Shown here: positions 36,195 through 46,366 of the stretch, piece after piece | Position numbering within the stretch: position 1 is the stretch's first letter | How the letters are laid out: each line of letters opens with the position of its first letter | Assembly: GCA_964637185.1 (NCBI GenBank) | Contig: CAZWVB010000001.1 | Coordinates: forward strand, 160,972 to 224,971 | Reading direction: 5' to 3' | DNA length: 64,000 bases | From: an uncultured Candidatus Saccharibacteria bacterium | GTDB taxonomy: Bacteria; Patescibacteriota; Saccharimonadia; CAILAD01; BJGX01 | Translations under genes and position numbers: made by a program | The notes under the pieces: model-generated | The model's database searches: none | The model's input: the letters and a program-made list of their open reading frames with translations, nothing else | What the model was told of the DNA's origin: nothing

Positions 36195-39100
36195 ATGCCA
36201 GAAACTATAACAACCCAGCCAGAACCTAATAGATCAGAATCAAGTAGTGTTCAGCTACCCAAGTCTCCTCTTGATCAAGCAGTTCAACAAACAGCATCTG
36301 AAAAAGGCTTTCGTGATGAGGCGATAGAGTTTTTGACTACAAAGGGCGCCATGGATACTCTAATGCGGCAGTTTGAAACAAAAGACAAGTATGGGCAAAG
36401 TAGGATAAGAGGCGAGATTGATGCCCGCATCGCTGCCGAGTTGGCGGCCGCTGAACCAGATAAAGCACTTGAAATAGCCAGTGGATTGAAAGGCCAGGAA
36501 TTTGTTACTGCAGTCACACCGCTAGTAGCTGCAGAACCAGAAAAAGCTTCGGAGTTGATCAAGCTTCGGGCAGTTAATATAGACCCTGTAATTGCAGAGA
36601 TAGTGGCTCGAGCTACCGACACTAGCTTTGCACTTAGCTATATCCAAGCCATGACCGATTATTCCGCCAAGTATGAGCCTCATCATTCGAGCCTGCAAGC
36701 GGCGTTCCGTAGAGCTTGCGTGAATATGCTATTAGCACTAGCCGAATCAAGGCCGGGACAAATCGCTGATATTATCTCGACTGCCCAAAGGTTCTTTGCT
36801 GCTACCAAAGAAAGACTAAGTGACATTTCGGGCACTAGCTGCTATCGTGAGGACCTGCGCTGGCCGATTGTTCAGAGTTTTGTTGAGAGAGCACGTGATA
36901 AACCAGAGCTCACATCTTTTGTGGTAGAATCTGTTGGAGATCTACTGGATGCAGAACAAGTAGCCGAGCTATCAATTGGTCTGGCTGGGTTGGACGCAGA
37001 CAGGGCAAAGACATTGCTGGAGTCGATGGAATCATTTGATATGCCGGCCGAAAAGTACTTCGAAGTTTTGCAAATTATAGAGGGCTCGAGTGCAAAAGTA
37101 CCGATCGAATATACGTCGGAGCTGCTGCAAAAATTGCCTGCCACAGAGCATTCAATTCGTATGCTGATGAAGCTAGGCACACCCGAGGCAACCGAACTGG
37201 CGTTTGCAAAGATGCTTGGAACGGTCGAAAATAGATTTGGGTACGTTAAGTACGGACCCGACCTACTGGCCGAGCTAACTGCTGACAGTCCAGAATTGGC
37301 CACCAAGGTTTTGGATCTATATGAGTTCAACGGCGAAAAAGTTGACCAATATTCCGTTTGGCGTGGCGCAGTCATAGCTGCGGCAAAGCTACAGCCCGAA
37401 AGGGCATTAGAGGCTATGGGCGATGAAATCGATAAGCCTTTGATGATTGGTGTGGCTCAGGTAATGCCAGAAAAGATTGAGCCAAAGGTAGCCGAGCTTC
37501 GAGAATATGACCAACGCGACTATGCCGGTGCACTAGCGATAGGTTTTGCGTCAACCGACATCGAAAAAGCCATTGAATGGGCGAATAAGGGTAATGATGA
37601 ATGGGTTCGTGGTGGTGTTGCAATAGAAATAGCCAAAACGGATCCTGAACGAGCAATTGATTTTTTGAGCGACTCCCCCCAGAGTTTTATACCGCTTATA
37701 GAGATCGGTCAAACTACCCCAGCAGCAGTCGAAAAAGCAATCAGAATCTACTCCGACAGTCACCGCCGTGTAGATGCTTCACATGCCGAGTTGCTGGCCG
37801 AGACAGCTTGTCACCAACCAGAGTTTGCGGCCAGATTATTGAAGATAATAAACGAAATAAGTACCAAAGAGAGTGGTTATAGCTCCGATAGCCCCCAGAG
37901 ACGCCGACAGGTAAATATTGCCAGAGAAAAGGTATTTAACTTTCATGCCCAAAACCATCCTCTAACTTTTCTGGGGATGCTATCGCAAGATATAGACTTT
38001 CATATCTACGATAGCGAGATGGTCAACACAGCCCTAACAGCTGCTCTCGATGGAGCCTTTGCAGAAGACCCTGCCAAAGCAGCGACACTACTAAGCAAAG
38101 TTAAGGGTGAATACCGCGCCCAGTTGCTGGCTGGTGCGTTAAAATACGATGAAAGCTTTTACGACAGGGCTAAGCTTGCTGCCCAAAAAGAACTTGCAGG
38201 ACGTTTTGACGATACCAAATCAACTATTTCTGTTCTGGCTAATCTTGTACAGAACAATAGACCGTCTGAGGCTGAGCAAATATTACAGGAAATCGCAAAA
38301 GGGGTAGAGCAAAGTTATGATGCGATATACAAATTAACTCCTATTGGCCATGCGATACCAGAGCTGGCATCCGTGGTGGTATCACGATTGATTGAATTGG
38401 CAACATCAAGTACTAGCTCAGCCTACGACCAGCATGGCATCATTATGGCATTGGCTAAATTTGTGGGTACCAGCCAGGCCGCCAAAGAAGCAATAGCAGA
38501 TGTTGTTAGCTTCAGAAGATATAGTAAAAGCACAAAGGAATACAACACGGAGTTGGTTGGGGAATTGCTAGCGGTCGACCCAGTTTTTGCGGGTGAAATG
38601 TATGAAAAGATACTTGATCGTGCTAGTGATAATGACATAACCAAACAACTGAGTAAGCTCTCGCTCGAGGACTTTAGCAAATTTGTTTTGAGTAACAATA
38701 GTGGAGGCGCTAACCTTGCTTTCATAACAAATCGACTAAAGGGTCAACCGGAATCAGCTACCGAGTTGTTAAATCTTGGCGAACAGGTGTTTGCGACGAG
38801 CCCGCAAAATAAGATTGAGCTGTATTCGCTTTTTATAGATTATTTGCCTGACGTAGCTTCCAAATTGGTACAGACCTACGAGGAGCTTGATGACGATCGT
38901 GCCAAAAAGTCCTTAATGGGTGAAGCTATACTGGCCTATGCCCGACTGCAAAATGAGCGACTTGATCCTATCGTTAGAGAAAAGATTTATGGCGCTACCA
39001 ACCCGGTATTAGATCCGTTTAACATGGAAAAAGACCGCAGCTTTAACTTTCGCGCTGTTACGGCAGAAGACATTGAGGCTAGCCCCCAACTCATTGCTAC

Positions 39101-45508: not shown

Positions 45509-46366
45509 GTGCGTGCAATTCGGATAATAGTAATAGTACTGTCATCATTGTTGGTTAGCGTATTTGTCCTACTGACTGTATTAAATCAGATAGTGCAGCA
45601 GTCTGATAAGGTAACCAACCTACTTGATAGCGCACAAATATATGATGTGATCAAGCCCCAGATACGTAGTGAAGTTGTAGACAATGTCAGTCTTGACAGC
45701 CCATATGCCGCTAGCTTCAATGCTCAGCTCGATACTGTATTGCAGCCTGGGCTGATCAAAACCATGTTTGAGCCAGTTGCATCAGGCCTGGTGAGTTGGT
45801 TGCGTGAGCCGTTAGATGTTGAGCCTAGGCTCAATGTAGATCTAACACCACTACGACAAGCCATGAGCCAGCCACCCAGCGATGTAGCGGCCAATAAGTC
45901 CTCAGATTATCAGTTTTTTGTAAAAAGAACTGTGCCGGACTCTATTGAGATAAATCCTCAAGACGGTACCATCAATGTATTGTCATCAATAACAAGTTTG
46001 AAAACTGTAGTGACCAAATTGCCGCAAATGCAGTTGATGCTGCTGATAATTATCGCAGTAGCCCTAATACTAACTATTATTGCCAGCCTTTTGGCCAAAC
46101 GCAGCGTATTTGCGGGTCTTGGATTTGTCAGTTTGGGATCGGCATTGGTACTTGCAATAGCGACACTCACAAGCCCAAGCATAACTAAGACACTAACAAC
46201 TACCAACAACGCTTGGATCATAAGTGTTAAGTTGGCCTTGGCATCCACCGCTTTGTACGGCCCCTATGTTCTCTGGTTGAGTGTAAGCGGGGCGATTTTG
46301 TGCGCTCTTGGATCAGCTTTTTGGTGGATACGTCGTCGCAAGCTCAAGCGTGGTGGTGAGCGCTAG
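45509..46366 (+). CDS. Hypothetical membrane protein (N-terminal TM plus a C-terminal multi-TM region)
   Basis: GTG start. CCAATTGGtgTATAAT lies at 45467-45482 upstream. Confidence 0.45.
   Translation: MRAIRIIVIVLSSLLVSVFVLLTVLNQIVQQSDKVTNLLDSAQIYDVIKPQIRSEVVDNVSLDSPYAASFNAQLDTVLQPGLIKTMFEPVASGLVSWLREPLDVEPRLNVDLTPLRQAMSQPPSDVAANKSSDYQFFVKRTVPDSIEINPQDGTINVLSSITSLKTVVTKLPQMQLMLLIIIAVALILTIIASLLAKRSVFAGLGFVSLGSALVLAIATLTSPSITKTLTTTNNAWIISVKLALASTALYGPYVLWLSVSGAILCALGSAFWWIRRRKLKRGGER

Follow-up and report, generated by a model that had tools for sequence, protein, structure and literature searches.

A strain-variable giant gene with a predicted divergent, cysteine-bearing GNAT-fold core in a Candidatus Saccharibacteria bacterium, and its relation to neighbouring ABC transporter and sigma factor genes

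A 64,000-nucleotide stretch of DNA from an uncultured Candidatus Saccharibacteria bacterium (contig CAZWVB010000001.1, positions 160,972 to 224,971), referred to here as the window, contains a giant open reading frame (ORF) that encodes a protein of 1795 amino acid residues (aa). Comparative genomics and structure prediction suggest that this is an autonomous, strain-variable accessory gene of an undescribed family, and that its product is a scaffolded acyltransferase and likely an inter-organism effector; we put the probability of this reading at roughly 55%. The family is defined by a C-terminal module of about 540 aa, which consists of a helical mid domain, a helical bundle and a divergent GNAT-fold domain. 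The genes downstream, which encode an ATP-binding cassette (ABC) ATPase, an FtsX permease and an extracytoplasmic function (ECF) sigma factor, are an ordinary module separate from the giant gene.

The giant gene, its domains and its family

An open frame of 1795 codons in DNA of about 47% GC is far longer than expected by chance, and a chance frame is therefore excluded. The original prediction, made from the sequence letters and ORF translations of the window, was of a single 1795-aa ORF without a signal peptide, and the frame, length and hydropathy agree with it: no transmembrane (TM) segment or signal peptide was identified, the highest Kyte-Doolittle 19-residue mean being 1.2. Interruption of the ORF in other assemblies was considered and none was found, the gene being intact at 1795 or 1798 aa in L026, L028, L029, L031, L032 and L033, and a 1798-aa allele from a Joint Genome Institute (JGI) metagenome (P0001) is 95% identical. 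The giant ORF is thus a genuine gene and not an assembly artefact. The protein contains only ten cysteines, and its parts are as follows.

36195..41582, plus strand: giant ORF, 1795 aa, soluble, without signal peptide
36195..39044, plus strand: N-terminal all-helical, weakly conserved region (aa 1-~950), probably an alpha-solenoid scaffold
39063..40079, plus strand: conserved, mostly helical mid domain (aa 957-1295), from alignments and an AlphaFold2 (AF2) model with a predicted local distance difference test score (pLDDT) of ~85-95
40107..40478, plus strand: helical bundle (aa 1305-1428) ahead of, and part of, the family-defining core (AF2)
40506..40994, plus strand: Cys-bearing GNAT-like domain (aa 1438-1600), from conserved motifs and AF2
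41094..41576, plus strand: canonical C-terminal GNAT acetyltransferase domain of the RimI/Ard1/Naa type (aa 1634-1794)

The core was modelled with AF2 over aa 1300-1612 from a 19-sequence alignment (pLDDT 90.7; predicted template modelling score, pTM, 0.83). The model shows a helical bundle (aa ~1305-1428), in which R1323, R1352, A1355 and D1362 are conserved, followed by an alpha/beta domain (aa 1438-1600) whose similarity to GNAT proteins was found at the level of the predicted fold. The motifs FTIGHDTDCCM and MVLDNIEAQRGRS lie at aa 1459 and aa 1516, respectively, with QHDGYGFKAL at aa 1718 in the C-terminal domain. By the order of the secondary structure elements, DTxCCM (C1467 and C1468) is located in the alpha1-alpha2 loop and C1478 opens alpha2, which in a GNAT is on the acceptor-site side. 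Strand beta4 is V-L-D-N-I-E and carries, together with the following loop, D1519-N-I-E1522-x-x-x-G1526; where a GNAT has its CoA-pyrophosphate motif A, this loop shows A-[NQ]-x-G-R-[DSN], with the glycine (G1526) alone conserved. GTGY (G1561/Y1564) follows beta5, while Y1589-x-D1591 and Q1595 are at beta6. Across 91 sequences C1468, D1519, E1522, G1561 and D1591 are invariant and about 40 further positions are at least 90% conserved (DP-G-TIG-DT-CCM, G-S-SC, GY, AQS, V-DNIE---G, Y, GTGY, Y-D---Q--L). In the predicted fold, a unique invariant set of Cys, Asp, Glu and Tyr residues, which includes the acidic D-N-I-E strand, falls where a canonical GNAT has its active site.

The core had no Pfam or NCBIfam match, either in the giant protein or in the 32 members scanned, and no PHROG or PADLOC match, and a profile search of PDB sequences with the core found nothing. 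It therefore falls outside every described family, since it has no sequence-level membership despite its GNAT-like fold. On the model, the most fitting description is a new and highly divergent GNAT-fold branch that is preceded by a helical bundle. Comparison of the core with the family's own C-terminal GNAT domain using hhalign gave a probability below 1%; with no profile similarity, tandem duplication was ruled out as the source of the two GNAT-fold domains. The region had been described as a Cys-containing module followed by a degenerate GNAT block; the GNAT assignment holds at the level of the fold only, and the two supposed units are one domain (aa ~1438-1600).

The C-terminal GNAT acetyltransferase of the original prediction is borne out by a match to PF00583 (30.4 bits against a cut-off of 20.7, E 5e-7), by the acetyl-CoA motif A (Q/R-x-x-G-x-G/A), present as QHDGYG at aa 1718-1723 (QRDGYG in P0001), and by the GNAT alpha/beta fold found for aa 1634-1794. 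The expected tandem of GNAT folds is likewise present, as two domains, one of which has conserved cysteines. In scans of the giant protein against Pfam, NCBIfam, PHROGs and PADLOC, the C-terminal GNAT was the sole part recognised, by PHROGs weakly. It missed the RimI equivalog cut-off (TIGR01575; 25.5 against 86.4 bits), and its sequence identifies it as an ordinary member of the GNAT superfamily that is RimI-like in fold only, with predicted acyl-CoA transferase activity.

An exhaustive HMMER scan with aa 596-1795 against 50%-identity cluster representatives gave 896 matches at E<=1e-3 and 119 at E<=1e-30. The part shared across the matches is the core (aa ~1305-1602), with weaker conservation from ~1060. 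Word-indexed searches were nearly blind to the family: whether started from the full protein, from the core alignment or from the alignment of 91 sequences, they recovered only the 95% identical allele and three short fragments. A complete core is present in 132 members; in 73 of them the chain stops no more than 15 residues past it, and 54 have a tail of at least 120 residues, usually containing one GNAT and at times two. A canonical GNAT follows the module in about 40% of the family and is absent from more than half. Because 73 of the 132 end right after the core, the Cys-containing core, and not the canonical GNAT, is the family-defining part. Neither an N-terminal hydrophobic signal nor a TM segment occurs in any of the 102 full-length members, and literature searches found no description of this family.

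One representative of 3235 aa (P0151) contains the Cys-GNAT core twice (aa ~610-740 and ~1406-1509), together with a PcfJ domain (2576-2704), LRV repeats and a weak eCIS_core match, an architecture that hints at modular 'effector array' proteins. Both PcfJ and the core presumably have a Cys motif ahead of beta strands, a likeness that we take only as an unconfirmed lead. Homology of the core to PcfJ was rejected, as hhalign of the core profile against the PcfJ domain of P0151 gave a probability of 0.1% and PF14284 hits no family member's core.

The distribution among genomes was determined by a motif-seeded scan in which each GTDB species was represented by one genome, and 24 homolog loci were obtained. 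Based on the labels of the metagenome-assembled genome (MAG) records, most are from Saccharibacteria (Saccharimonadales, Nanosynbacter, Nanosyncoccus and Saccharimonas). The others include one Uhrbacteria MAG, one Nomurabacteria MAG, two unclassified records, one 'Chlamydiae' MAG (50% identity) and four 'uncultured Gammaproteobacteria' MAGs (33-45% GC); one MAG carries two paralogs. A motif scan of IMG/VR found no viral relatives of the family, while the best structural match in BFVD is an uncharacterised phage protein (E 1e-11). A phage origin of the giant gene was ruled out from the absence of IMG/VR relatives in the motif scan and from the PHROG matches, which are weak and to the GNAT only.

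Two of the loci have particular settings. In a Nanosyncoccus MAG (L015, 2076-16455) the homolog (7178-11536) lies between fusA and tuf, inside an otherwise conserved str-operon neighbourhood. In a gammaproteobacterial MAG (L009) the homolog (4427-8461) lies between 544-nt direct repeats (3768-4311 and 8531-9074) that are 99.6% identical; the 3' half of a Na/Ca-exchanger gene is thereby present twice, which could reflect Campbell-type integration, recent duplication or an artefact of assembly. Flanking direct repeats were ruled out as a general signature of mobility, as the 22 homolog loci other than L009 have no comparable repeat.

The mid domain (aa 957-1295) had no Pfam or PDB sequence match; in the alignments W1104, R1128, H1138, F1147, F1222 and Y1231 are near-invariant. 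The first ~900 aa had been assigned to HEAT/PBS-lyase repeats, of which the helical scaffold stands and the HEAT identity is not borne out. The scan of the whole protein gave no HEAT match, and the best match when the N-terminal region was scanned piecewise was a single stretch below threshold (HEAT_2, 19.8 bits against a cut-off of 27.7, E 1e-3). Self-BLAST of aa 1-1000 gave no off-diagonal match at E<=10, indicating that there are no internal repeats, and the hydropathy autocorrelation of the same region at lag 36 was merely 0.08. A second AF2 model covering aa 596-1795 (overall pLDDT 81) shows serial helix pairs (hairpins) in aa 607-932 at low confidence (pLDDT 55-70). In homologs the N-terminal region is only ~24% identical or cannot be aligned. 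The N-terminal ~950 aa are probably an all-helical, solenoid-like scaffold, as judged from the modelled part.

Strain variation and the downstream genes

The giant gene is followed on the same strand by six genes; the segment in which it lies and the repeats that bound this segment are also given below.

36062..36105, plus strand: left imperfect direct repeat with promoter-like TGCAAA-17 nt-(TGc)TAAAAT, then decayed ABC first codons
36092..41658, no strand: strain-variable 5567-bp segment with the giant gene as its sole content, from blastn of L027/L030 against the window
41659..41702, plus strand: right bounding repeat with promoter-like TGCAAA-17 nt-(TGc)TATTAT, including the true ABC start ATG at 41696
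41696-42379, plus strand: ABC ATPase (PF00005, E 8e-37; best NCBIfam models LolD and MacB)
42369-43580, plus strand: FtsX permease (PF02687, E 1.5e-12; LolC/E-like full-length alignment, 10-396)
43603-44163, plus strand: ECF sigma factor with regions 2 and 4 (PF04542, PF08281/PF04545, PF07638)
44160-44678, plus strand: anti-sigma candidate, 172 aa, overlapping the sigma stop, with one TM segment
44662-45438, plus strand: coiled-coil protein with a signal-like N-terminus, 258 aa; coiled-coil-type matches without meaningful family support
45509-46366, plus strand: membrane protein, 285 aa, without meaningful family support

Eight contexts from the same species were found in public assemblies using the window ABC ATPase. 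Two of these (L027 and L030, from the independent runs ERR10802373 and ERR10802364) do not contain the giant gene, and the ABC-FtsX-sigma-anti-sigma cluster is intact in both. The upstream 216-aa gene is followed by about 100 bp and then by the ABC ATPase, the remainder being unchanged. In the blastn comparison the left flank stops at 36091 and the right flank restarts at 41659, and the flanks are 97.4-98.7% identical. The bounding repeats (44 nt, 70% identity, spacing 5597) are represented at the empty site by one hybrid copy. An artefact of k-mer assembly is an unlikely explanation of this null haplotype, because the hybrid junction differs from both window copies and these share no more than 11 consecutive identical bases. 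The TGCAAA-17-(TGn)TAWWAT element in the repeats may, from its sequence, serve as a promoter. The giant gene and the ABC operon, as putative separate transcription units, thus each have a promoter-like element of their own, and the ABC-FtsX-sigma-anti-sigma genes form a self-sufficient module. The 216/240-aa ORF just upstream of the indel (35344-36066, minus strand) has no library match and is kept in all strains.

The strains that carry the gene differ in sequence. Between the window and L001 the proteins of the neighbouring genes are 98.4-100% identical, and the giant protein is 98% identical over aa 1-1060, 90% over aa 1060-1300, 92% in the core and 94.5% in the GNAT. Synonymous divergence (Nei-Gojobori dS; window 36195-41582 against L001 4711-10107) is 0.42-0.44 in codons 1200-1600, compared to 0.01-0.05 in the first 1000 codons and 0.007-0.11 in the neighbouring genes. 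This indicates that the giant gene is a recombination mosaic in which the C-terminal enzymatic module has been replaced by a diverged allele. The ratio of non-synonymous to synonymous divergence (dN/dS) is ~0.07-0.19, and since this shows purifying selection the gene is functional. Positive selection was rejected as the cause of the lower identity of the giant gene between strains, as dS is elevated too (0.42) and dN/dS is ~0.1-0.2. Three haplotypes, two alleles and a null, thus coexist between flanks that are at least 97.4% identical, a pattern typical for accessory, conflict or interaction genes.

A further strain-variable spot was identified only 4.5 kb from the giant-gene indel. In L027 an extra insertion of ~2.4 kb (3205-5646), absent from the window (31673-31740), lies by tRNA-Trp and holds a second pair of an ABC ATPase and a MacB_PCD/FtsX permease, with SHOCT and DUF6325 genes just upstream.

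The window neighbours were compared with the homolog loci by tblastn and by all-against-all clustering of ORFs. In the 23 other genomes with a homolog the FtsX, ECF sigma, anti-sigma, coiled-coil and membrane protein genes are not adjacent to it, and among the 24 homolog loci no recurrent neighbours were found except among near-identical Nanosynbacter-type contigs. The closest homolog locus (L002, 55% core identity) has an ABC and MacB-FtsX pair 4.3 kb downstream; five unrelated genes intervene, encoding MsrA, an unknown protein, VKOR, SulP and glutathione peroxidase (GPx), and there is no sigma factor. The comparison of synteny in relatives therefore goes against the original prediction, in which the giant gene, the ABC pair and the ECF sigma/anti-sigma pair were one system: the genes are not co-conserved and the null strains keep the ABC-sigma cluster. 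The giant protein and the ABC/FtsX pump and ECF pair are mutually independent.

The downstream products themselves correspond in part to what had been proposed. The ATPase and FtsX components of the predicted MacB/LolD-type export pump were found, while no MacB_PCD (PF12704) match was detected in the permease, although the pairs of L002 and L027 show PF12704; no adaptor gene is nearby and no outer-membrane partner is present. The sigma factor is well supported (TIGR02937, 98.7 bits against a cut-off of 42.9). For its predicted anti-sigma partner the gene overlap and the single TM segment were seen and a family match was not; the candidate contains no Cys and is therefore not of the zinc-binding anti-sigma (ZAS) type. 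The identities of the anti-sigma factor, the signal-bearing coiled-coil protein and the membrane protein are plausible on sequence features.

Proposed function and alternatives

What we infer of the enzymatic activity, target, delivery and effector role of the giant protein follows from its domains and its distribution. The protein would be a scaffolded acyltransferase whose target is a protein or another macromolecule. The fast-diverging N-terminal helical scaffold (~950 aa) presumably binds the target or a partner, and the C-terminal GNAT, which belongs to the protein-acetylating RimI/Ard1/Naa class, would supply acetyl-CoA chemistry. The Cys-GNAT domain may be a second, mechanistically unusual catalytic site, with a Cys nucleophile or a metal site, or it may be a pseudo-GNAT that positions or recognises the substrate for the C-terminal domain, as in other tandem-GNAT proteins. 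C1468, D1519 and E1522 are conserved far more strongly than a mere binding surface would require, and intrinsic activity of the core is favoured because more than half of the family is without a canonical GNAT.

A role as a host- or partner-directed effector is suggested by the phyletic pattern, the lack of Sec signals and the combination of presence/absence with allelic polymorphism; we regard it as tentative, its odds falling somewhat short of even. The host-interaction role proposed from the window alone is kept in this form as the most attractive reading, given the patchy distribution, the strain variability and a family in which neither Sec signals nor TM segments were seen, and the partnership with the exporter and sigma factor is dropped. 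Several points weigh against the scaffolded-effector reading. No secretion signal was recognised in the giant protein, which may be simply cytoplasmic; MAG labels such as 'Chlamydiae' and 'Gammaproteobacteria' may reflect mis-binning; and the giant gene and the ABC gene are on the same strand with no clear terminator between them, so that co-transcription by read-through is possible in this strain.

That same arrangement, with a gap of 113 bp and no convincing terminator, is what would be expected if the giant acyltransferase, the MacB-type exporter and the ECF pair were one envelope or host-interaction system in which the pump exports or serves the giant protein under control of the sigma factor. 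The giant gene also lies behind a diverged copy of the promoter-like element of the ABC operon, so that both might respond alike, and the pair downstream of the homolog in L002 points the same way. Conspecific strains without the giant gene retain the full downstream cluster, however; the neighbours are not beside the homologs in the 23 other genomes, unrelated genes intervene in L002, where there is no sigma factor, and ABC and FtsX pairs are common in these genomes, L027 having a second one. In addition, pumps of the MacB/LolCDE type work by mechanotransmission on substrates in the periplasm or the membrane and are not known to export cytoplasmic proteins of ~200 kDa. A single system is thus largely refuted by comparative genomics and very improbable.

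An unlikely, though less remote, explanation is that the protein is a cytoplasmic, self-directed protein acetyltransferase or regulator that acts on the organism's own ribosomal, translation or other proteins and is variable because it is dispensable. The C-terminal GNAT is closest to the RimI/Ard1/Naa Nα-acetyltransferases, secretion signals and TM segments are missing throughout the family, and the position of the Nanosyncoccus homolog between fusA and tuf would fit. Housekeeping modifiers, however, are seldom present or absent with highly diverged alleles within one species, and the phyletic distribution is very patchy; with more than half of the family lacking a canonical GNAT, the conserved function would sit in the Cys-GNAT module and not in RimI-like chemistry. 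Less probable again is a single-gene defence or conflict element (anti-phage or abortive infection), in which a variable helical sensor would be combined with toxic GNAT-type domains that acetylate, for example, aminoacyl-tRNA or some other essential target. GNAT toxins exist, defence loci typically show presence in only some strains, allelic mosaicism and a hot spot of recombination, and the best viral structural match is the phage protein mentioned above. By contrast, there was no PADLOC match at E<=0.1, no NTPase or STAND module, no defence-island neighbours and no relatives in the IMG/VR motif scan, and divergence peaks in the conserved enzymatic module and not in the putative sensor.

The reading of the giant gene as an accessory gene for a scaffolded acyltransferase has a bolder extension, which we consider unlikely: the Cys-GNAT module would be a new class of host- or partner-directed effector of episymbiotic candidate phyla radiation (CPR) and intracellular bacteria, with non-canonical chemistry and host-selected polymorphism. 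If true, the class would span Saccharibacteria, Uhrbacteria, Nomurabacteria, Chlamydiae and Legionellales-like Gammaproteobacteria. It would use a cysteine acyl-enzyme or a metal- or Fe-S-dependent step, unlike canonical acetyl-CoA GNATs, and the presence/absence and divergent alleles would be maintained by selection arising from interaction with the host. To our knowledge, very few host-interaction factors have been identified in Saccharibacteria or other CPR episymbionts.

A sizeable uncharacterised family is now defined, with a confidently folded and sharply conserved new branch of the GNAT fold. C1467, C1468, C1478, D1519, E1522, Y1589 and D1591 are singled out for mutation, and a single population offers natural null and divergent alleles for comparison with hosts or phenotypes. 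The ABC/ECF neighbours are unsuitable for inferring the function of the giant protein, and a misleading 'system' annotation is removed.

The wider window and comparison with known systems

A carotenoid cluster (46344-52403) directly follows the region 36195-46366. It contains a fusion of a UbiA prenyltransferase with GT2 (NCBIfam PRK13105, E 1e-100; lycopene-elongase-like), two half-size lycopene cyclase genes, and genes for phytoene desaturase, polyprenyl synthase and phytoene synthase. Such a cluster is unusual, being unexpected for a reduced episymbiont of the CPR/Saccharibacteria type. Elsewhere, the ORFs at 17922-18431 and 18428-18916 abut, and from their sizes and order in the operon we take them as S5 and L15; an L30 gene is missing between them, which fits CPR-type ribosomal operons and is not specific to them. 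EF-Tu and EF-G of the window are 73% and 66% identical, respectively, to the proteins of a Nanosyncoccus MAG. An earlier remark that the ribosomal operons resemble those of episymbiotic lineages is compatible with the missing L30, with these identities and with the mostly Saccharibacterial family, while the carotenoid cluster is atypical. ThyX (58306-60213) is unusually long at 635 aa, with the Thy1 domain occupying only aa ~155-352, and is located in a stretch of 62% GC in a window of ~47% GC, so that horizontal acquisition is possible. The lipase region at 34-36 kb is likewise GC-rich (56.5%).

The downstream genes most resemble the MacB/LolCDE-type (type VII) ABC systems with ECF sigma/anti-sigma pairs, with which they share a LolD/MacB-like ATPase, an FtsX permease, an ECF sigma factor and an overlapping single-TM ORF. 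They differ in that the permease has no detectable MacB_PCD and that there is no adaptor or outer-membrane partner. The PcfJ-like domain (PF14284) is connected with the family through P0151, where it is present, and through PcfJ-like phage proteins that appear weakly in the structural search (E ~4e-3). The RimI/Ard1/Naa10-Naa50 Nα-acetyltransferases (PF00583) are enzymes of ~150 aa, whereas the GNAT of the giant protein is the tail of a chain of 1795 aa and is optional within its family.

The closest analogues are the tandem-GNAT proteins VipF (PDB 6wqb), MshD and clavulanate ORF14 (2wpw), in which the C-terminal GNAT also looks canonical and the N-terminal one aberrant, and which share with the giant protein an occurrence in host-dependent bacteria. 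In the Legionella effector VipF, catalysis is confined to the C-terminal GNAT (PMC10936415). There is no specific sequence relationship between these proteins and the giant protein, only generic GNAT matches, and the likeness is one of analogy. The giant protein is about six times the size of these tandem-GNAT proteins. Unlike theirs, its aberrant domain has its own conserved Cys and acidic motifs together with a helical bundle and a mid domain, and it is this domain that defines the family while the canonical GNAT is dispensable.

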